A stretch of 57,098 bases of DNA from a virus. Taxonomy: Duplodnaviria; Caudoviricetes. Below, piece after piece: positions 9,047 through 39,932 of this stretch. Under the pieces are notes generated by a model. The model was given only the letters and a program-made list of their open reading frames with translations. It did not search any database and was not told the DNA's origin. The stretch lies in the IMG/VR virus record IMGVR_UViG_3300042934_000352, positions 1 through 57,098 of that record; one strand, 5' to 3'. Each line of letters starts with the position of its first letter. The first letter of the stretch is position 1. The translations under genes were made by a program, and so were the position numbers.

Positions 9047-9808
9047 GTGGCTGATATAAAGACTTGCAAGAAATGTAATGAGCAAAAAGAATTGACTGAA
9101 TTTAGAAAAGTTAACAGTAATAAAGATGGATTGGATACTAGGTGTAAGGAATGTAGAAAACAAGAATATAAAGAAAATCCAGCACAAAAGGAATACTACT
9201 ACAGACACCACGAGACATTGTTACAACGCGAAGCAAAGAAACGAAAAAATAAAGATCATAAAGAATATCATGTTCAATATACCCGAAAAGACAGAATAGA
9301 AAACAAAGAGAAAGTGTCACTGAGGTCATCAAAGTATAGGGAAAATAATAAAGAATATTATAATGACTATCAGAAAAAACGAAGGGTATTACGCAATTCA
9401 TTGGATGATATGTACCCGGAATATATAGAATCACAAGTTTATGATTGTTTCGGTGACAAGTGTTACTTAACAAATACCGAAGATAACGTTATACTAGATC
9501 ATTTTATACCTATCGGTTGGGGCCATGGAGGAACATATCACGGCAATCTTTATCCCTTAAATGTAAATATTAACTCAACAAAAAGTGGTAATAATCCATT
9601 TGAGATAATTGAGTTTATAAACGAAAAATATCAAATTGACATACATAAATGGAACAAATTAATTGAAACATTAGCTACATTAAACGGAGTAACTGTCGAT
9701 GAATTTAAGGAGTTTGTTTACTGGTGTGAAGCTAATAAACGAACAGTGGATGATATTCAAGCGAATCCTGTTCCATCTATTGAATTATGGAAATCGACTA
9801 CATTATAA
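9047..9808 (+). CDS. HNH homing-type endonuclease with N-terminal Zn finger
   Basis: KTCKKC...DGLDTRCKEC; basic linker; C...LDHFIPIGWGHGG...GNLYPL...N..K. Confidence 0.8.
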   Translation: MADIKTCKKCNEQKELTEFRKVNSNKDGLDTRCKECRKQEYKENPAQKEYYYRHHETLLQREAKKRKNKDHKEYHVQYTRKDRIENKEKVSLRSSKYRENNKEYYNDYQKKRRVLRNSLDDMYPEYIESQVYDCFGDKCYLTNTEDNVILDHFIPIGWGHGGTYHGNLYPLNVNINSTKSGNNPFEIIEFINEKYQIDIHKWNKLIETLATLNGVTVDEFKEFVYWCEANKRTVDDIQANPVPSIELWKSTTL

Positions 9809-15749: not shown

Positions 15750-16679
15750 TTAGTTAATTAATTTTAGATAATCATTCAATATACAATCAATATTATTTTC
15801 ATCCCAATAAGGAATCCTAAGTAGAGGTATATTATTATCTATACAATATTGATTTTTAATCTGATCACGTTTTTGGCCTTCCACAAATCCTTCTTCACCA
15901 CCAAACCAATCAATAGGTCTATAATGTTGCTCACCATCGAATTCAATAAGCAAAGTGACATTATCATCATGGAATAAGGCGAAGTCAAACCTTAGTAGAT
16001 TTATGTAAGAACAATCTGGAAAAGTGTACTCTTTTTTAAAAACTAATTGTTTTTCTGTTAAGTGATTAAATATCTTTCTTTCACCATTGCTCATACTATC
16101 TTTGCAATTAGGGCATCTTGAGTTAGAATACATGAAGTTAATTGGAGCGGATTCAAATACAGTATCGCAATTAGTATGTATAAATTTAAGAAAAGTATAA
16201 TTATTAATATAGGAATCTAAGACTTTATATTCAGCATTGGTAACTTCCTCTACTTTTCTCTTAAACTCATCATCTGTATATCTTTCACGATTTTGACACC
16301 GTGGACATCTTTGACCACGAGCTGTAAATTGAGCAGGGGTCATATTCCATATATAATCACAAACGATGTGTTTAAATTTAACTTGTATTAGTGCGTTTCT
16401 GTAGTCGCTTAATACTTCATATTCATCACCAACTATATCATAAACTTTCTTTTTGAATGATTCAGTATTACACTTGATTCTCCCTGAGCAATTCGGACAT
16501 TTACTTTGACCAGTTAGTAAATTTCTAGGATAAACATCCCATTCATAATCGCATTCATTATGTTTGGTTAATATTTTAGTAGTTGTGTTAACATACTCTC
16601 CAAGAAAAGTGTAGATATTTTCACCGTATATATCTTCAATTTCTTTAACAAACTGCACATGTGTTTTTCTTTTCGACAT
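15750..16679 (-). CDS. free-standing endonuclease (Zn-ribbon repeats + PD-(D/E)xK DUF559/DUF2726-like domain)
   Basis: Three H..C...CP.C repeats; LRFDF...IEFDGEQH...RD..KN.YC...I.LLRIPYW. Confidence 0.82.
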   Translation of the reverse strand: MSKRKTHVQFVKEIEDIYGENIYTFLGEYVNTTTKILTKHNECDYEWDVYPRNLLTGQSKCPNCSGRIKCNTESFKKKVYDIVGDEYEVLSDYRNALIQVKFKHIVCDYIWNMTPAQFTARGQRCPRCQNRERYTDDEFKRKVEEVTNAEYKVLDSYINNYTFLKFIHTNCDTVFESAPINFMYSNSRCPNCKDSMSNGERKIFNHLTEKQLVFKKEYTFPDCSYINLLRFDFALFHDDNVTLLIEFDGEQHYRPIDWFGGEEGFVEGQKRDQIKNQYCIDNNIPLLRIPYWDENNIDCILNDYLKLIN

Positions 16680-28900: not shown

Positions 28901-31900
28901 CCAGTTACCATCCAAGTTATCTTGAAATTTAACAACTGCATCACTGTAATCTTTTAGAATACCGTTAAACTCACCGCTATTTAAGGCTAGTAATGTATTA
29001 TCAAAAGCTTTGCTAACCTTACCAGAAGTCATTTCTGATTCAGCGACAAACAATGTGAAATCATTGATAATTCCATTTGTAATTTTATTGGAATTAGCTC
29101 CTAATGCTTGATTGGCTTTAATCATTTCCATTGCTGATAAACGATGTGACATTTTAGCAGTTTCTAATTCGCCACCAAGCATTTGATATTTCTCAACAAC
29201 TTTTTCTAGGTCTTTGAACATTCCTTTTTCAAAGGAACTTACCTTTTTACCATCAGCTTGTTTCGCAAGAATTTCCTCATATTTCTTTATTGCATCTTCA
29301 ATCTTTGTGATACCATAGTCATCAATGTTAGTTCCTGTTAGAATCATTTCCATTGCATTTTCGGTATCTTTTATTAAATCTTTGGAGCTATCGTAATTTT
29401 CTTTAGCCTCTGTTCTGTTTTTAATAGCATCTAATTTTTCCTGAACAGCAATCTGTTTTTCTAATAAGTCGATTTGACTTCTAATTTTTTCACTACTACC
29501 GAGTATTTTGTTGCCGTATTGATCTTCACCTACGACAAGTTCAGGCATCAGACGTGCCAATTCATTTCTTACTGAGTTAAACTCTTGTAAGTCTTCAAGT
29601 TTATAATCCTGTTTACTAACAACTTCACTTAATCTCTCATATTCTTCTGCTAGAACGCCAACTTCATTTTTACTAGCTTTATAGCTTTCAGTTAAATCCT
29701 TAGTTTTTCTTTCAAATTCTTCTAGTCGTTCTCTTGCTTTACCCATTGACTTAAGTAGAGCTTCAACACCAAAACTAATACCAACAATAACTGCACCAAT
29801 TCCAGTAGAAATTAGTGTAGCTCTCAATGCTTTAGATGTAATTCCTACAGCAGTTAATGCCCGACCAAACATATGTGTTTCAGCAGCCATTAATTTTACT
29901 TGTGTTCTAAATGTTGTACTCATCAACATTGTAGAAGTTGTGATTAATCCCATTATTAAAGGTAGTCCACCAAGGTTTTTCACTAACCAAGTAACACCTT
30001 CTGCAACTGTTTTTAAGCCTTTCATTGACTGAATAAATCCCTCTGTAATGAATGCCTCTCCCATACTCAAAGCTAATTCCTCGAAACTTTGTTTCATTAA
30101 ATTAATTCTAGCTTGAAGTGATTTCATGTATTGGTCATTCTCACGAGAAGCAGAGCCTAAACTATCCTTTGAATCGGTTAACATTTTCTCAAATAAATGC
30201 CAATTATCCAATAGGGCGGTCATTCTACTGATATGATATTTACCAGCTAAACCTTCCATTACCGCAGCTTTTTCAACAGTGCTAATGTGTTTTACTTTTT
30301 CAGCAATTTCACTGTATAAATCAACAGCGTTACGCATATCACCAGTATTTTGATCAATGAATTGTACATTCAACATCTTCATCGCATCTTGTGCTGGTTG
30401 ACCTAAAAGACGAGGGAGGACACTTTTCACAAAGTTACCAACCTCATTACCACTTTGTTTAGTGGCAGCCGTTACTGTTCCAATTATCGCATTTAGTTGA
30501 TCCATATCTAATCCAAATGCATTAGCAGTCGCTCCAGCTTTTGCCATACCTTGTGCCAATTTTTCTACAGTTGTCTTTATGTTCCATTAAGTTCGCTACA
30601 CTTAATGCGTTCTCTTATGAACTGCTACATGTCGCCATATAGAACAGACTATATCAAAAACTCAATGAGTTCCTTCCCGTTTCCCGTTTCCCTATCCGAA
30701 GATAGCCCTCAATCGCTTAGGGGGTACGTCTTTCGACTAGTCGTTACACCTTCCTCAATAGAGGCTTGGCTCGGTATTATCTCAAGAGACTTTCACCGAA
30801 TTAGAGAAGTTTAGATATGGTATCACTACCATAAATGCCTAATATTAAGCGTTTTTGTTAGAAATATTATTCCAAGAATCTATAACTTTCATGGAATTTT
30901 TCGTTTCTAAGTTAAATTGCACCATTGCAGAAGTTAAATATTCGGCTGCTTGGCCTGCTGAAACCTCACCTACGTTTGAGGTAATTAGACCTGCTTCCCC
31001 AAGATTAATTAAGTCTTGTTCCTTATAACCTTGTCGAGCGAATTCACCATATGCGTCTAATACTTCGGTCAATGTTTTACCAAATTTAGCAGCACTCGAA
31101 CTAGCATTGTCCATAATTTTAGCGAAATTTGTCTCTTCCGACATTACTTTTTTCAAATTCGTTAAACGAGTATCCACGTCAATTATTATTCCGACAGTAC
31201 TCTGAAGTGCCTGAATTGACCCATAAAATGCCGTTGTAGCTGCCATCCATTGTTTGTATTAATTATCAATCGTGCTTTTGATAACTCACCAATTAAGGTG
31301 ACTATATGTTTCCATATAGACTAGACCATATCTTGACATTTACATGTCCTTCCCGTTTCAGCTCGCCATTTGGCACTTGCAAGCCTACGATACTCCCAAT
31401 AAGGTTTCTCTGGTCGTTGAGCGTTCCTCTATTCAAGGCTTCGTTGCTGATTGCCCAATCCATTTAATTTTCAAACATTCACGCTTAGGCTTATTTCATC
31501 CTTACGTTGTAGTTTAAATGGCTCTAAGGGGTTTCCAGCAGTTAAAGAAGTTTTACTCCTGCATGAATTTTACAGGAAATTTAACCATCGCTGTTCTGAA
31601 TGCATCCATCATCGTCATTGATGAACGTGCAGTTTCTTTCGCTGAATTTTGGAAACTTTTTAATTGCTTCTCCATATGTTTAAGCGAATTACCAGCGTTA
31701 GTAGCAGTAGGGTCAATTTTTTCTAATGACTTTATTAATGCATTTACACCTGAACCATCAACTGTTTTTGAATGTGTTCTGAGTAGGTTTTTAGAATTCG
31801 AGATAAGCTTTTCTTGTAACGTCTTATTGTCGGCTTCTTTATTGAGATTGATGACAGCCTGACGTACTTTATCAATTTCTTTAGCATTCCTAGCACCATT

Positions 31901-33337: not shown

Positions 33338-34624
33338 TTAATTAGATGACTTCTGATAAATAGTATTTGCTCTCATAAAATAAGGTAAGATTATATTCTT
33401 ATTTAATTTTAGGTTATTGATTGACAATATATAATTATAACTATTGTAATCTTTAAGAATGCCATTGTTCTTAACATAGTCAATTATTAGCTTTTTGCAT
33501 AATTCTGGATTGTCATTTATATCTTTTTCCCATAGATACAAGATATTTACATTGTGATATTTTTTAAGATAAGTGTTTTTAGACTTATCTCTAATAACAT
33601 CTTTCTTTTGGATATCATGTAAAGAATCATAATCTTTATATTTAATTGGATTAGCGTGCCAATAGTCACCCATTACTTCAATACCCAAACAATTTTCTTT
33701 ATTATAGAAATCTAATACATAATACTTGAATGGAATTTCTTCTTCAAAATTCATACTTAATTCGTCAACAATTTCTTTAATTTTTATTTGAATTGACGTG
33801 TTAGTTTGAGGGAATTCACCATTTGCTATACGGTTGGCAGTGACAATTCTCATATGTTCGATTTGTTCTGGTGTTTTTGCTACACCAAATTGAGGGTGTT
33901 TTTCACCAACATAGTACATTGACCTAAATTTATAATAGCATTCTTGAGAACAAAATTTATCTTTGTTATTTTCTTTTCCCCATTTGTACGTTTTGTATTC
34001 TTTGTCGCACACTGTACATTTGGTTTTTATATCTTGATAATTATACATTTTGTCACCGAATAAATTTTCACTTCTAAAAGTTGCATAGCAATATCTTGAG
34101 CAAAAATGCCACTTATTAGTTTTAACTTTAGATTCATTCACTTCATATTCATTACCACAGTGGTCACACTTAACTAACTTCTTATCTTTTTTAGGATTGG
34201 GATTATGTTTAACAAGAGTGTCTTTAGCAACACAGCTTCTTGAACAATAGTGTTCACCATGTCCTTTAAATTCTGATGGTTTTTTATCAAATACTTTTCC
34301 ACAAACCTTACAATTTGTCTCAATACTTGTTTTTCTACTTTTCCCACGTAATTTTGCAGTTCCAGTGCGAGTTTCCCATATCCCTCTACATTTCGCATTA
34401 CAAAAATGATTGGTAGAATTTATAACACTTCCATACCTTTTATCGAGTATCTTATTGCAATTATCACATTTAACTTTTATTATTTCGTGTGAATTGGAAG
34501 ATAAATGTTCGATTGGTACGATTAATTCATCATGTAGTTTTGTATATACATATCCAAGTGATTCATAATGTTTTCTATTTGCTCCAACCCACTTCACTTT
34601 AATAGATTGATTAGGTAATATCAC
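33338..34624 (-). CDS. free-standing endonuclease: conserved N-domain, four CxxC..(F/Y)C(S/N)xxC repeats, Vsr/DUF559-like C-domain
   Basis: Repeats such as CKVCGK...HYCSRSC; C-terminal LDFY...IEVMGDYWHANP...RD..K...ILYLWE. Confidence 0.8.
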   Translation of the reverse strand: MILPNQSIKVKWVGANRKHYESLGYVYTKLHDELIVPIEHLSSNSHEIIKVKCDNCNKILDKRYGSVINSTNHFCNAKCRGIWETRTGTAKLRGKSRKTSIETNCKVCGKVFDKKPSEFKGHGEHYCSRSCVAKDTLVKHNPNPKKDKKLVKCDHCGNEYEVNESKVKTNKWHFCSRYCYATFRSENLFGDKMYNYQDIKTKCTVCDKEYKTYKWGKENNKDKFCSQECYYKFRSMYYVGEKHPQFGVAKTPEQIEHMRIVTANRIANGEFPQTNTSIQIKIKEIVDELSMNFEEEIPFKYYVLDFYNKENCLGIEVMGDYWHANPIKYKDYDSLHDIQKKDVIRDKSKNTYLKKYHNVNILYLWEKDINDNPELCKKLIIDYVKNNGILKDYNSYNYILSINNLKLNKNIILPYFMRANTIYQKSSN

Positions 34625-34664
34625 TCAAACCATCTCCTTTATTATATCTCCCATATATAAAGTA

Positions 34665-34732
34665 GGCAGACGTTAGTGGGGGAGATGGTATCCACATAAA
34701 CAACAGGTAGCTAATCCGTTGCAACGTCTGCC
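34665..34732 (-). ncRNA. structured 5' leader RNA (AUUAGCUAC-loop three-way junction), copy 1
   Basis: Outer stem GGCAGACGUU/AACGUCUGCC; hairpin CAACGG-AUUAGCUAC-CUGUUG; hairpin with loop complementary to the downstream SD. Confidence 0.65.
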
Positions 34733-34770
34733 AAAGTTGAAACCTAAATTAATAATATGTATATCACATT

Positions 34771-34989
34771 CTAATAATCTATAAACTCCGTCAATTCAAC
34801 ACTATCAGCCTCATAAGTTTCCACTTTAAACCGTTCACCATTTCCTGCGATAGCATACAATTCGAATACAGCAATTCTGAGAGGATGGAGCTTAAAGTTG
34901 GCTTCCAATAACGCTAAAGTTTCATCTGTGTTTTGGACAGGTAAACTGATATTGAGTGTTACTTTACCGAAAACGTGATTTTGATTCAT
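34771..34989 (-). CDS. hypothetical protein
   Basis: 72-aa ORF downstream of a TTTACA-17-TATTAT promoter; no SD in front of the ATG. Confidence 0.5.
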   Translation of the reverse strand: MNQNHVFGKVTLNISLPVQNTDETLALLEANFKLHPLRIAVFELYAIAGNGERFKVETYEADSVELTEFIDY

Positions 34990-35109
34990 ATTAAATTTTA
35001 GGAGGAATTTAATACAAGTAAGATACCTTGTTGTTAATTATAATACCTTAACCTTAATGTATTGTAAAGTATTAATCTATAAATTTTTCCATATTATATT
35101 TTAATTTTA

Positions 35110-35170
35110 TTGCACAAATATGCATGTTTAATTTATAATAAGTTTATAAAGGGTTAATTAACCTTCTATA
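35110..35170 (+). promoter_or_regulatory. sigmaA promoter with downstream inverted-repeat operator
   Basis: TTGCAC-18-TATAAT (35110-35139); imperfect IR TTATAAAGGGTTAATTAACCTTCTATAA. Confidence 0.55.
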
Positions 35171-35207
35171 ACGTTATAGAATATTAAGGTATTAAATAGG
35201 AGGATGT

Positions 35208-35459
35208 ATGGCTAAAAAAGTATTGAAAAACCGAACGCAAATCACATCAACGCTTAGAAATGAATTAAATAATGAGTTAAAGATATTATCAGAAGAAACT
35301 GATATTCCAATATCTAAGCTATTAGATCAAGCGGTAGAATTACTTATTGAAAACAAAAGAGGAGTCCAACGTGACACTCAACGTCATCTAGCTCCACAAG
35401 GACTAGAAAGAGACACAAATAAATATCACATTGACATTAACCTACCCGTTAACGACTAG
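35208..35459 (+). CDS. ribbon-helix-helix DNA-binding protein
   Basis: LKNRTQITSTL...L..LSEETDIPISKLLDQAVELL (RHH_3-like); only + strand gene inside the late region. Confidence 0.8.
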   Translation: MAKKVLKNRTQITSTLRNELNNELKILSEETDIPISKLLDQAVELLIENKRGVQRDTQRHLAPQGLERDTNKYHIDINLPVND

Positions 35460-35483
35460 CCTTTCTCAATGGAAGGCTTTTTT
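35459..35483 (+). terminator. intrinsic terminator
   Basis: GCCTTTC-TCAAT-GGAAGGC followed by T run. Confidence 0.65.
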
Positions 35484-35549
35484 CTTTTAATTTCAAGTTG
35501 ACAGTCAAATCAATTCAACTGCCAAATTCAAATAAAAGGGGCGTTTAAA

Positions 35550-36578
35550 CTAAATATCATCCAAACTCTTTTTCTCTACTTTCTTAACTCCTTCAGAAGT
35601 GAAGAATTTCGAGAAATCATCCTCAGCTTCATTGTCATCATAAATTTCAATCATGTCGATAGATTCCCATCCAAAAAACTCTTTAATAATTTTATCCGGA
35701 ATGTTATTTGCTCTAAGTTTAGTAGTTAAATAGTGACGTAGGGAGTGGAAATAAAAATCCACACCTAAAAGCTTTGAAAATGAATTACTCCAACTCGAAA
35801 GGGTAGTATCGGAAGCAGGAATCCACTCTTCATTTCTCCTAGTTACAAATAAATCATCAGTAGTTATACCTAATCGCTCTCTTTCTTCCATCCACAAGTC
35901 GAAATATTCTTGGAATCCTGACTTTAAAACGAATTTATGTTTCTCAGCACCATTACGACCTCGACCCTTAATTTTTATCTTTATCGGAGTTTTGTAATAT
36001 GCATTATTTTGAATATATTCTTCCTTAAAGAAACTTACTTTGAATCTCAACAATTCGTTCAATCTAGCCCCTGAGTTAGCTGCTAAAGCAAACACACATG
36101 CTTTTTGATATTGTTTAGTTTCAACTAAAGATTGAAGTAAATTATTTACTTGTTCTGCGGTTAAAATAGTTTTCTCACGAACAGGTTTCTTTTGGGGCGA
36201 TTCGATTTTATTCACTATATTGCGAAAATCAGGGTATAGATCATCCATGATATTTTCAATAAAATTACAAAGACTACTCAAACAAGACTTTATACGTCTT
36301 GTTCTATTTGAACTGTGACTCCATGAGTTTATCGAGTAACCTTGAAATGCAATTATGTCACGTTTATTCAAGTCACCAATGAAACGATTACCACAATTAT
36401 GTAAAAGAAATATAAATATAATTCGCATATCATTTTCGTATTGTTTTATTGTTCCGGGTGATTTGTCCGTTGACATTAAATAGGTCTTCCACTCTTGAAG
36501 TAGTTGCTTATTTTGCGGATTAACTTTTTCCCAATCCGATTCATTAAATATTCGATTGTAAACTGTACCTCTAGCCAA
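35550..36578 (-). CDS. tyrosine recombinase embedded in tail operon
   Basis: SAM-like N-terminus; SGARLNEL (R), KGRG (K), HSLRH (HxxR), FFGW (W), MIEIY (Y): full catalytic set. Confidence 0.9.
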   Translation of the reverse strand: MARGTVYNRIFNESDWEKVNPQNKQLLQEWKTYLMSTDKSPGTIKQYENDMRIIFIFLLHNCGNRFIGDLNKRDIIAFQGYSINSWSHSSNRTRRIKSCLSSLCNFIENIMDDLYPDFRNIVNKIESPQKKPVREKTILTAEQVNNLLQSLVETKQYQKACVFALAANSGARLNELLRFKVSFFKEEYIQNNAYYKTPIKIKIKGRGRNGAEKHKFVLKSGFQEYFDLWMEERERLGITTDDLFVTRRNEEWIPASDTTLSSWSNSFSKLLGVDFYFHSLRHYLTTKLRANNIPDKIIKEFFGWESIDMIEIYDDNEAEDDFSKFFTSEGVKKVEKKSLDDI

Positions 36579-36595
36579 TTCTTATTCCACCTCCA

Positions 36596-37120
36596 TTAAT
36601 TACCATAACTATACGTTTCACCAGTTACGTCTTTACCACCGTGATACACTTGAACTACTAATCCATGCTTGTTACTTCTGTTAAACTTCTCTACAGCATT
36701 CGTGACATAATTCGTACCTTTGAAACGAGTAAAGTTTTCTATATCTAATGTAGAATCCAATTTGTTCCGCCAACCAGTGTTGAGTAACCAAGGAGTATAT
36801 CCGTCAGGCTGACCTTCACCAAATACAGAAGGGTGGTTAGCTAATCCATCATCAAAGTAAATCTCAATACTCCAATTATTAATACTTATTTTCTTAGGCT
36901 CACTTACTCGGAATGATTGTAATGTACGTCCAGTACGTTCATATACCACAGGGTCATATGAATTGAAATAAGCGTTTAATTCATCTTTGAGTAGTTTTTC
37001 TAATTCCTGTGCTGATTCACGAAGAATCTTTTTTATGCTAGTTTCATCTAATGCAGTAGCTTGACCTTTACTACTGTTGATCCATTTTTCTAATTCACGA
37101 ATATTATTAAATGTCGGCAT
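36596..37120 (-). CDS. phage morphogenesis protein (tail-completion-like)
   Basis: Y.P.VYERTG motif; position in tail operon. Confidence 0.5.
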   Translation of the reverse strand: MPTFNNIRELEKWINSSKGQATALDETSIKKILRESAQELEKLLKDELNAYFNSYDPVVYERTGRTLQSFRVSEPKKISINNWSIEIYFDDGLANHPSVFGEGQPDGYTPWLLNTGWRNKLDSTLDIENFTRFKGTNYVTNAVEKFNRSNKHGLVVQVYHGGKDVTGETYSYGN

Positions 37121-37644
37121 TAAGCATCAACAACTTCCGCTTGAGCTAAACTCAAATTCTTAAACAATTCAGCATTCTTAATTTCCAACTTCCCAAACTC
37201 TTCTTGCATTTTCTCCGTCATTTTATCCATGTACATAGACGTTGCACCAAACTTAGCTAGGTGATCAAATACTTTTCGGATTTCAACAGGGAGGAAGATG
37301 TCATCTATAATTAAGTCGAATAAGCCTGCGTTAATGATGGATTCCATTTCATTGATTTGACCAACAAAAGTATCAGCTTTCAATTGGCTCTTTAGGTGAG
37401 TGAAGTGCTTGATGCACATGAACAGGATATAGTCATGGTATCGTTGTGCTGATAATTCAATTTCTTCGTCAACTTGACTTAGGATTGTTTGAATCTCAGT
37501 CAACATTGACTTAATGAGTAGGGGAGGGAAGGAAGGGTAAAATGTGATTGTGCTGCCATTGTCGAGCGTGTATTGTTCAAGTGTGTTGGTTTCTTTGGCG
37601 ATTTGTTTGATTGTGGATAGTTTAATGTCTGTTTTCTTGGACAT
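37120..37644 (-). CDS. probable tail assembly chaperone
   Basis: 174-aa helical protein between major tail protein and TMP. Confidence 0.45.
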   Translation of the reverse strand: MSKKTDIKLSTIKQIAKETNTLEQYTLDNGSTITFYPSFPPLLIKSMLTEIQTILSQVDEEIELSAQRYHDYILFMCIKHFTHLKSQLKADTFVGQINEMESIINAGLFDLIIDDIFLPVEIRKVFDHLAKFGATSMYMDKMTEKMQEEFGKLEIKNAELFKNLSLAQAEVVDA

Positions 37645-37699
37645 GTTGATTCCTCCTTGTGGATTCCTTTTTGGGCAAATAAAAAAAACATCCTATTGG

Positions 37700-38722
37700 T
37701 TAGGATGTCTGTGAATATAATCTATCAAAATAGTCCTTATCCATTCTTATTAGATTACCGAAATTATAAGTTAATATATTTTTACCTAATCTAACATAAC
37801 CTTCGTCTATATTAATCTCTGAATTTGTACCATTATCATTCACGTATTCTAAACATTTATAAATTGCATCTAGTAAAATATCTTTTTCTGGTAATTTATC
37901 TCTGGTAGATACTAATCTAACAATCTTGTAACCTCGTCTTTTTAAATAGAATTCTCTTGCTATTTCTTTTTTATCAAATTCTTCATCTGTTAAATTACCG
38001 AACTTCACTTGTAGTCTATGACCGCCACCATCATATTCAAAAGCTATGTTGTCATTTAATACAATATCTATGTAATAATTCCCTAATGGATAATTTAATT
38101 TTCCACCTAATAATTCATGTAAGTATTTTTGGGTTCTTGATGTAGGTGCAGTATTGTTTTTGAAAAGCGTTCGTTTACTTTTTCGTTTAACTTCTTCATT
38201 TTGCAAACTATACTCAACACCGTATCTTTCTATATTAGTGTTTATTTGCTTTTGTCTAATTTCAGGGCTTTGAGCAGAGTATTCTACACCATAACGTTCC
38301 ATCATTGTAGATTTCATTTGATTCTGTACTTCTTGTGATTGAGCAGGATTTTCTACTCCATATCGAATGATATTTGTTTTCTTTATTTGGTTTTTCACAT
38401 CTTCTAATTGGAGTGTAGATTTCACACCATATTTGATCATGTTAACTTCTTCAGACTTAATAAACTTACACTTTTCACAAGCACATTTATTAACATATTC
38501 ATGATTTTTTACTCTATTGGTATAGTCATTCATTTTCATAAAATATACGGTATCACAATAATCACAAATAACTTTAACGTCACGATGACTTTTAGAAGAA
38601 AGGTCTTTTTGCTTAATGAGAAAAGGTTCGCCAATTTTTGTGAATATATATCCCTTTTGAGTATAGATTGGTTTACTTCTTCTTTCCCAAGTCATTTCAA
38701 TCAATTCATCTTCCAAGAACAT
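37700..38722 (-). CDS. free-standing endonuclease: conserved N-domain, (K/R)YGV repeats, DUF559-like C-domain
   Basis: Start at ATG 38722 with AAGGGAA RBS; four (K/R)YGV repeats; YYIDI...FEYDGGGH. Confidence 0.78.
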   Translation of the reverse strand: MFLEDELIEMTWERRSKPIYTQKGYIFTKIGEPFLIKQKDLSSKSHRDVKVICDYCDTVYFMKMNDYTNRVKNHEYVNKCACEKCKFIKSEEVNMIKYGVKSTLQLEDVKNQIKKTNIIRYGVENPAQSQEVQNQMKSTMMERYGVEYSAQSPEIRQKQINTNIERYGVEYSLQNEEVKRKSKRTLFKNNTAPTSRTQKYLHELLGGKLNYPLGNYYIDIVLNDNIAFEYDGGGHRLQVKFGNLTDEEFDKKEIAREFYLKRRGYKIVRLVSTRDKLPEKDILLDAIYKCLEYVNDNGTNSEINIDEGYVRLGKNILTYNFGNLIRMDKDYFDRLYSQTS

Positions 38723-38758
38723 AATATCATTCCCTTCTATGATTTCCCTTAAATTAAT

Positions 38759-38825
38759 CAATGGTAAGAGGGATAAGGGAATCCCTCTTTATTAAGCATG
38801 GTAGCTAATCACGCTCTAACCATTG
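38759..38825 (-). ncRNA. structured 5' leader RNA (AUUAGCUAC-loop three-way junction), copy 2
   Basis: Outer stem CAAUGGUUAGAG/CUCUUACCAUUG; hairpin GCGUG-AUUAGCUAC-CAUGC; hairpin AGGGAU-UCCCUU-AUCCCU with anti-SD loop. Confidence 0.65.
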
Positions 38826-38870
38826 TTTAATATATTAAGTTAATTAATATTAGTCAACGATAATTAAAAA

Positions 38871-39146: not shown

Positions 39147-39932
39147 TTAAATAATTTGTTCTTTATCGAATACGATTAATTCATACATATCGGTGCTGGT
39201 CGGAGCTTTCAAAATTTCCATGTTAAGGTCTAACACTGCGGGTTCACCTTCTGAAGTAAATTGTAAGGAGAAGTTGTCCTCGAACTTGGCGTTAGGAATG
39301 TTGATTTGACCATTAAAGCTTTTCTTTGTAAAAATATCTGTCACGAGTACATCAATTGATACACGAAACGACTTTCCGAAAGAGTCTGCTGTAACTTTGA
39401 TAGTCTTAGCATCAGAAGCAGTATCAGCTTTATAGTAAACTCGGATTTTAGTAGAATTTGCAACAGATGTGTGGAAAGTCAAAACCTTAGCGTTAATCGA
39501 GTATTCTAAGGCATTTGTCCCCGGAGTACCTAAAGTATATTCTTGACCGTTAGTACCATCAGCATTAACTTTAAAAACTGAAATTAAAGCACCTTTCGGA
39601 GTTTTTGCTAAAGTAATAGTGTTAGAAGTTACGCTTTGCACTTCATTTAAATCAACTGTTTTGACACCAGAAACAAGGTCGTTACCAGTTAACATCGCAA
39701 CGGCTTTATTGTCGAAAATTGCGTCCTGCATGACAAGTTTCGCTTCTCTGTTTGAGCTGAAACCCACTATCTTAGCATTTCCGCGACCACCTCGGCTATA
39801 TTGTGTTTCTCCAGTTGTGTCGATTGATGTCGATTTTAAAGTAGAGAGAGTAACGATCGCTTTATTTGTTACTAAGTCAAAGAAACTTACATCTCCTGAC
39901 TCTGAAATTGCCCACTGATTAGGTGTTGCCAT
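39147..39932 (-). CDS. major tail tube protein
   Basis: RGGRGN, IPNAK..NF.L...GEP motifs; followed by terminator. Confidence 0.75.
   Translation of the reverse strand: MATPNQWAISESGDVSFFDLVTNKAIVTLSTLKSTSIDTTGETQYSRGGRGNAKIVGFSSNREAKLVMQDAIFDNKAVAMLTGNDLVSGVKTVDLNEVQSVTSNTITLAKTPKGALISVFKVNADGTNGQEYTLGTPGTNALEYSINAKVLTFHTSVANSTKIRVYYKADTASDAKTIKVTADSFGKSFRVSIDVLVTDIFTKKSFNGQINIPNAKFEDNFSLQFTSEGEPAVLDLNMEILKAPTSTDMYELIVFDKEQII

Follow-up and report, generated by a model that had tools for sequence, protein, structure and literature searches.

Candidate int-alpA-type leader RNAs with loops complementary to the Shine-Dalgarno sequence upstream of two phage homing-endonuclease genes

Free-standing homing endonucleases are common in large phages and, to our knowledge, the control that renders their expression harmless has been described for a few T-even cases only. 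In T-even phages, RNA structures sequester the ribosome-binding site (RBS) of homing-endonuclease genes, namely I-TevI, I-TevII, I-TevIII, segB and mobE, in simple hairpins that are relieved by a late promoter inside the structure (PMC2988022). Here we analyze a viral contig of 57,098 nucleotides (IMG/VR record IMGVR_UViG_3300042934_000352, positions 1 to 57,098; hereafter the window), in which two structured RNA elements, e1 and e2, precede two homing-endonuclease genes, HE1 and HE2, on the minus strand. We judge it likely that both elements are cis-acting 5' leader RNAs of free-standing homing-endonuclease cassettes, of a divergent int-alpA type, that throttle translation. Like the T-even hairpins, they would be cis RNA structures hiding the RBS of a selfish nuclease gene in a phage operon (PMC2988022). 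Unlike these hairpins, leaders of the e1/e2 type are three-way junctions with a putative pseudoknot between a loop and the Shine-Dalgarno (SD) sequence and a competing decoy, are portable, and have the promoter upstream of the whole structure.

The riboswitches preQ1-II and SAM-II are pseudoknots that sequester the SD. The leaders resemble them in a predicted pseudoknot from a loop to the 3' tail that would cover the SD, and differ in having no evident ligand pocket, two alternative partners and few conserved nucleotides (UAG, GAAA). The int-alpA family (RF02996), typed 'Gene; sRNA' in Rfam, is located, as its name says, upstream of integrase or alpA genes. It reportedly stems from a survey of 224 motifs, whose main text (PMC5737381) does not name it, and the literature that we searched contained no functional study of int-alpA.

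Two leaders and their sites of complementarity

Folded alone, e1 (34732-34665, minus strand) and e2 (38825-38759, minus strand) each form an outer stem, P1, that encloses two hairpins, P2 and P3, in a three-way junction. The predicted energies are -24.6 kcal/mol for e1 (z -4.67) and -26.0 kcal/mol for e2 (z -5.87), and 0 of 200 shuffles folded as well in either case. In e1, P1 (34732-34723/34674-34665) encloses P2 (34722-34716/34706-34700), which is capped by the 9-nt loop AUUAGCUAC (34715-34707), a joining segment J23 of sequence UUAU (34699-34696), and P3 (34695-34692/34679-34676), whose 12-nt loop (34691-34680) contains the anti-SD segment CCAUCUCC (34688-34681). This segment is complementary to the SD of HE1, GGAGAUGG (site R2, 34637-34630), which lies ahead of the GTG start codon (34624-34622), and the same loop is complementary to an upstream decoy, GGGAGAU (site R1, 34652-34646). 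In e2, P1 (38825-38819/38765-38759) is followed by the segment J12 (UA, 38818-38817), P2 (38816-38810/38800-38794) with the identical loop AUUAGCUAC (38809-38801), J23 (AAUA, 38793-38790) and P3 (38789-38781/38774-38766) with the loop UCCCUU (38780-38775). Together with its flanks this loop reads UUCCCUU and is complementary both to the SD-overlapping site R2 of HE2, AAGGGAAU (38736-38729; ATG start codon 38722-38720), and to the decoy site R1, AAGGGAAA (38750-38743). All these parts lie on the minus strand. They bear out what a first-pass annotation of the window had read from it: similar folds around a shared 9-nt loop, a second-hairpin loop complementary to the SD of its own gene, and an SD-like near-copy 14-16 nt upstream of that SD in both leaders.

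The loop, ATTAGCTAC at the DNA level, has exactly three occurrences in the window (34707-34715 and 38801-38809, both minus; 9670-9678, plus). The last copy lies inside an open reading frame (ORF, 9047-9808) without a flanking stem, and we take it to be a chance occurrence. Extended by its closing G-C pair to the 11-mer GATTAGCTACC, the sequence is confined to e1 and e2 within the contig. A tRNA or tRNA-like reading of the elements was rejected, as ARAGORN found none and the loop resembles neither an anticodon nor a T loop; a possible likeness of the loop to a stretch of 16S rRNA was dropped because the loop varies.

The best-scoring promoter-like site of the region (TTGACT, 17 nt, TATATT; 38829..38857, minus strand; 10 of 12 positions, a match to consensus only) lies in front of e2 and HE2, and from its position transcription would begin close to the 5' end of P1. 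HE1 (33338..34624, minus strand, 428 aa) is composed of an N-terminal domain (N-domain), zinc-ribbon repeats and a C-terminal DUF559-like nuclease domain; HE2 (37700..38722, minus strand, 340 aa) has the N-domain, DUF7487 repeats and a similar C-terminal domain, and matches phrog_12131, 'homing endonuclease', at 6.3e-53. The DUF559 matches fall below the cut-off in both proteins (E 0.0056 for HE2, 0.11 for HE1) and weakly support an assignment of these domains to the PD-(D/E)xK fold. The N-termini of HE1 and HE2 are homologous (32% identity over 59 aa, E 2e-9), and a third nuclease gene (15750-16679, minus strand) lacks both the N-domain and the RNA, again in line with the first-pass annotation: its upstream region holds a terminator-like hairpin and an SD site only and matches neither of our two covariance models.

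A portable leader family and its relation to int-alpA

Leaders of the same architecture are found on many other viral contigs. A first pattern, GATTAGCTACCN{8,22}GGATWCC, returned eight loci with a single true leader (L021). The hairpin-top pattern CGGATTAGCTACCYG returned 76 viral loci, including at least 12 three-way-junction leaders located before nuclease or integrase genes; the genes behind them encode GIY-YIG, HNH and CapR/treble-clef nucleases, helix-turn-helix (HTH) proteins and two tyrosine recombinases. Treble-clef/PD-(D/E)xK-like nucleases are also among the genes behind this architecture, often with the same 11-nt hairpin top. A loop-independent pattern that specifies neither hairpin, TGGTATAATN{6,10}GGGATAG, gave at least 99 distinct matches in viral contigs. 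Among the matches listed, the junction could be parsed in 54, of which 37 were judged to be members and 17 were rejected by eye, and 45 were unparsed, at least two of which (L144 and L154) look like members, which makes 37 a minimum. A scan of genome contigs returned mostly chance matches (3 true members in 120 among the matches listed), and prophage-bearing genomes of Paenibacillus, Clostridiaceae and Virgibacillus are among the collected carriers. The integrase of L043, used as a single protein query, recovered itself and one relative only.

The consensus begins with a P1 ending in GGGA, J12 UAG, a variable P2 and J23 GAAA or GACAA, and continues with a P3 loop complementary to both R1 (X-GG followed by A's) and R2 (X-GGAGG). 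Nearly all leaders found with CGGATTAGCTACCYG start 6-10 nt past an extended -10 element, TGGTATAAT, and the TTGACT-17-TATATT site of e2 occupies the equivalent place. The spacer between SD and start codon, GUGUUUUUGUUAUG, is often conserved, and in the form GGUGUUUUUGUUAUG it is near-identical before unrelated nuclease genes (L135, L187, L199, L208, L212, L247 and others); the portable unit thus seems to span promoter to start codon. In one viral record with two leaders (L371 and L388), the 30 nt upstream, including the promoter, are identical even though the leaders have unlike P2 and P3 sequences and precede different genes, which suggests modular exchange of leader parts. Family matches among the 47 downstream proteins are to HNH (12), HNH_5 (7), GIY-YIG (7), DUF4379 (6), CapR (4), HNH_3 (4) and Phage_integrase (2). 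The leader is portable family-wide, across unrelated nuclease and recombinase genes.

Alignments of the leaders made with MAFFT were not structure-consistent; the first covariance model, model R1 (models R1 and R2 are not to be confused with sites R1 and R2), was seeded from three sequences and re-aligned with Infernal. Across 39 model-aligned members, 92.6% of cells were paired, as compared with 62.0% in shuffles and at most 50.4% with slid partners. Changes on both sides were seen in 21 of 22 pairs, and none of 500 shuffles reached any of these measures; covariation extends over all three stems. The P3 loop follows its targets in the same manner. In 49 of 49 members the own loop found at least one site of at least 5 bp, versus 66% when loops were swapped between members, and in 39 of 49 at least two such sites (swapped, 32%); with at least 6 bp, the counts were 40 of 49 for one site or more (swapped, 26%) and 14 of 49 for two or more (swapped, 4%). 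Moreover, the atypical SD AAGGCGGUG is found exactly where the P3 loop is GCCU(U)A, and UCGGAGG where the loop is UCCGA. Of the translational control that had been proposed for e1 and e2 in the first-pass annotation, the pseudoknot and SD-decoy arrangement thus recurs with covarying sequences in all 49 parsed relatives; the part of the proposal in which the N-domain acts as its reader fares differently, as discussed below.

No family of Rfam 15 is reached by e1 or e2. The alignment of e2 to int-alpA runs over its full length and scores 23.8 bits, below the gathering score of 35.8 (E 0.13 in 6.2 kb, 2.9e-4 per genome), and e1 gave no Rfam match at E<=10. Among the relatives, L144, whose P2 carries a GACG loop, scores 40.3 bits and passes the int-alpA gathering score, and 13 other clear members have no match in Rfam. 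The earlier view of the RNA as not recognizably a named family is weakened by L144 and by the sub-threshold match of e2. Like the collected family, int-alpA combines a three-way junction and the J12 UAG with a short P2, J23 GAAA(A), a pyrimidine-rich P3 loop and downstream purines, and its consensus has UAG, GAAAA, the pyrimidine-rich loop and a downstream AAGGG in common with it. Neither the SD as a second partner, nor the decoy logic, nor the palindromes described below figure in the Rfam description as seen by us. We read the collected family as a broad, mostly uncatalogued extension of int-alpA.

Within this extension, e1 and e2 appear to be divergent, outlying variants of the int-alpA type. 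They display the complementarity of the P3 loop to a purine stretch downstream of P1 that characterizes int-alpA. Both lack its GAAA(A) in the segment joining P2 to P3, and e1 also lacks the UAG ahead of P2; most collected relatives have both features. Unlike int-alpA, they are AT-rich, carry a long P2 with a 9-nt palindromic loop and belong to a Firmicute-type phage. They precede homing-endonuclease genes rather than int or alpA, and 2 of the 47 related leaders precede integrases. With the family built on the GGGAUAG core they share the 11-nt top of P2, the order of the helices, the decoy and SD sites, and a nuclease gene directly downstream. Model R1 scores e1 at 24.9 bits and e2 at 21.8 bits.

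Translational control and competing explanations

The most likely function of the leaders is cis translational throttling, in which the P3 loop would pair alternately with the decoy or the SD. A typical leader would be transcribed from its own promoter, so that the transcript begins with, or shortly before, the three-way junction, and its P3 loop could form a pseudoknot with either R1 or R2. Placed on R2, the loop would cover the 5' half of the SD and hide the RBS; placed on the decoy R1, it would leave the SD free. The leader would thereby set low or conditional translation of a potentially harmful nuclease. Control of translation initiation in cis would account for the portability of the leader among unrelated selfish genes, and also for an SD that itself bends to match the loop. 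That translation is the step acted upon, which of the two states is the on-state and what triggers the flip are matters that we infer from sequence. In many phages, nuclease and recombinase cassettes seem to bring along with them an expression limiter that is portable and independent of the gene, and a cis translational role, if true, would re-annotate int-alpA, now typed as a small RNA (sRNA).

Several observations weigh against throttling by int-alpA-type leaders at this locus. The junction segments of e1 and e2 deviate from the family: e1 has no J12 UAG and its J23 is UUAU; e2 has UA followed by G, but its J23 is AAUA; and neither has GAAA or GACAA. Detection of the two elements by model R1 is partly circular, as the model was seeded with members bearing AUUAGCUAC. 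Model R2, built from 20 members without the AUUAGCUAC loop, finds neither e1 nor e2 as a junction and matches only the P3 hairpin of e2, to the model's P1, although it does find 11 AUUAGCUAC-bearing leaders on other contigs (E<=0.003). Because model R2 misses e1 and e2, their membership rests on the 11-nt P2 top, the helix order, the decoy/SD logic and the gene context. Member calls across the family were made with our own parser and by inspection, and the 39-member alignment is fitted to the model structure, which favors the covariation figure somewhat. The swapped-loop controls are already high at 5 bp because many loops are SD-complementary by nature. No consensus promoter lies directly upstream of e1, which may be transcribed from a promoter-like site at 35068-35040, through a 72-codon ORF. 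Finally, in e1 and e2 the loop is complementary to R1 and R2 to about the same degree, so the dominant state is not readable from their sequences.

The first-pass annotation had instead tied the RNA to the N-domain, as a co-inherited RNA-protein module in which this domain reads the conserved loop for autoregulation or the RNA serves as a cofactor of the nuclease. In the window this seems attractive, as both leaders precede the only two N-domain proteins and the third nuclease has neither domain nor RNA. Beyond the window the association dissolves. None of 45 proteins behind related leaders on other contigs resembles the N-domain; the downstream families are HNH, GIY-YIG, DUF4379/CapR and integrase instead. 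Conversely, the N-domain homologues of five named phages (Perkons, AM1, Goe17, E3 and YungSlug) and of the contig L015, six loci in all, have no covariance-model match upstream. L015 is the closest relative of the window; its tail-tube protein is 62% identical, and its N-domain nuclease gene occupies the corresponding place behind the tail-tube gene. Few close relatives of HE1 and HE2 were detected in viral contigs, and none has the loop as a leader; an exact copy of the 9-mer in one relative, inside a tape-measure gene, is taken as chance. Moreover, two leaders that precede integrases whose proteins are 73% identical carry different loops, AUUAGCUAC and CGUCGCGAA, and leader copies within one phage also differ in their loops. 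A loop that varies among close relatives is not a fixed protein-recognition sequence. We therefore regard the RNA-protein module as largely refuted and extremely improbable, and reject, on these comparisons, a link between the leaders and the N-domain.

Translational throttling also accounts better for the data than three other readings. The junction might be a stand-alone sRNA that acts in trans on other targets, its position before nuclease genes being incidental, as the Rfam type line of RF02996 and the place of the junction at the start of a transcript that has a promoter of its own would allow. Yet the junction is not followed by a terminator, covariation ties the P3 loop to the SD of the very next gene, and the spacing from promoter through junction, R1 and R2 to the AUG is kept across gene families, often together with the SD-to-AUG spacer; we consider a trans-acting sRNA quite unlikely. 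Even less probable is an element acting as DNA, for example as a recombination site (an 11-bp core between inverted repeats) for the tyrosine recombinase encoded at 35550-36578 or as an operator, or else a plain terminator or stabilizer for the upstream gene. The two copies are direct repeats flanking that gene, their palindromic core and inverted repeats resemble protein-binding DNA, and the same hairpin top occurs in other phages as a terminator-like hairpin with A and T runs. However, 30 of 30 other contigs have exactly one copy, most of them without an adjoining recombinase; the arms of the P2 stem differ and the core is kept, the reverse of recombinase sites; neither e1 nor e2 is called terminator-like; and only an RNA explains that P1 and P3 covary and that the P3 loop tracks the SD. 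A leader that acts mainly on RNA fate, as a protective 5' fold or by processing or insulating the cassette from the late operon, would suit the 5' position of the junction in most members and the location of both cassettes within the tail-gene operon. It leaves unexplained the match of the P3 loop to SD and decoy and the atypical SDs that follow the loop, and is in our view unlikely.

Palindromic loops, stand-alone hairpins and genomic setting

The loop of the first hairpin is not invariant in the family. The two integrase leaders with the same P1, P3, R1 and R2 have loops AU-UAGCUA-C and CG-UCGCGA-A, and across members we found 11 different 6-nt palindromes in the P2 loop or in a very short P2: UAGCUA, UCGCGA, UUGCAA, GUGCAC, UAAUUA, UCAUGA, UGAUCA, UGUACA, AUGCAU, UGGCCA and CUGCAG. 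The variants differ by symmetric double changes that keep self-complementarity, and the loop layout is often 2+6+1, as in the two loops above and in CU-UAAUUA-C and AG-UAAUUA-A. The region J12-P2-J23 contains a palindrome in 18 of 36 loop-independently sampled members among the matches listed, and the P3 hairpin in 3 of 36; in 1000 mononucleotide shuffles of the 36 members listed, the mean was 8.7 and the maximum 19. In one phage record, each of three leaders has a palindrome of its own; of the two leaders in another, one is palindromic and the other has a UAGCU pentaloop. The palindromic P2 loops appear to be a new observation of this analysis.

The dimerization initiation site (DIS) of the retrovirus HIV-1 has a 9-nt loop in which a 6-nt palindrome is flanked by 2 + 1 nucleotides. 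The P2 loops resemble it in the 2 + 6 + 1 layout and the symmetric changes, and differ from it in that about half of the family has short non-palindromic loops (GACG, UAGCU) and that no packaging role is involved. The central pairs of a 6-nt palindrome cannot form inside a hairpin loop, so selection for self-complementarity points to intermolecular pairing; predicted loop-loop duplexes range from -1.8 to -10.9 kcal/mol, with -6.5 for AUUAGCUAC. We tentatively suggest that the P2 loop, here AU-UAGCUA-C, could be a self-complementary kissing loop that dimerizes leader RNAs, a possibility that we rate below even chances. Still more speculative is a P2 hairpin that would serve as a dimerization module, pairing each element with itself and e1 with e2, and would give the cassettes a dosage or timing sensor. 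Dimerization would follow RNA concentration, and hence gene copy number or infection stage, and might determine which of its two partners, decoy or RBS, the P3 loop occupies. Non-palindromic loops of the GACG or UAGCU type are present in about half of the family, so dimerization, if real, would be an optional add-on. If true, it would provide a simple concentration-sensing riboregulator and offer synthetic biology a compact part.

About 20 of the 76 loci found with CGGATTAGCTACCYG are not leaders. Rather, they are terminator-like stand-alone hairpins topped by GATTAGCTACC, whose stems of 10-15 bp lie between runs of A and T. All 12 that were examined have the motif on the strand opposite to the neighboring genes, and where Pfam named the neighbors the hairpin lies just after a DUF1492/sigma-70-region-4 gene and upstream of a small terminase gene (3 of 6 regulator-side and 3 of 3 terminase-side ORFs tested). 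Such hairpins were seen at L026, L044, L047, L050, L055, L057, L063, L064, L066, L072, L073, L077, L087, L090, L094 and L096-L100, and, at about position 1501, at L102, L110-L112 (L110 at about 922), L118-L121, L123 and L129-L131. The 11-mer GATTAGCTACC is present in exactly one copy in each of 30 contigs checked, and a kissing network among several copies per phage was rejected as a general rule on that count.

The window, with an estimated completeness of 43%, derives from a large siphovirus that is distant kin of the Lactococcus 949/AM1 group (tail-tube protein identity 31-34%). Compared with named phages at the DNA level, neither the region nor the two leaders gave any useful match. The e1/e2 region is a tail module on the minus strand, with the order tail tube (39147-39932), 71-codon ORF, HE2, two structural genes, tyrosine recombinase with a divergent ribbon-helix-helix (RHH) gene, the 72-codon ORF, HE1, membrane protein and tape-measure gene; both nuclease cassettes are thus inserted within the tail-gene operon. 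The recombinase (35550-36578, minus strand; Phage_integrase, 1.1e-14) and the divergent RHH_3 protein (35208-35459, plus strand) lie between the two cassettes, which is unusual for a structural operon, and the recombinase gene has no leader upstream. On L015 (880-2580), the leader consists of two long hairpins without an outer stem or model match; the first is tipped by UUGCAA, and the loop of the second, UAUCCGAG, is able to pair with UUCGG directly before the SD. Another leader-carrying viral contig, L038, has two CRISPR-DR2 repeats at its end (7-36 and 75-104, 44.1 bits each). In the window, the tape-measure gene is split by two group I introns (30625-30857 and 31302-31633, minus strand; RF00028, 70.4 and 66.2 bits), and a 133-codon ORF (30845-31246) lies between them.

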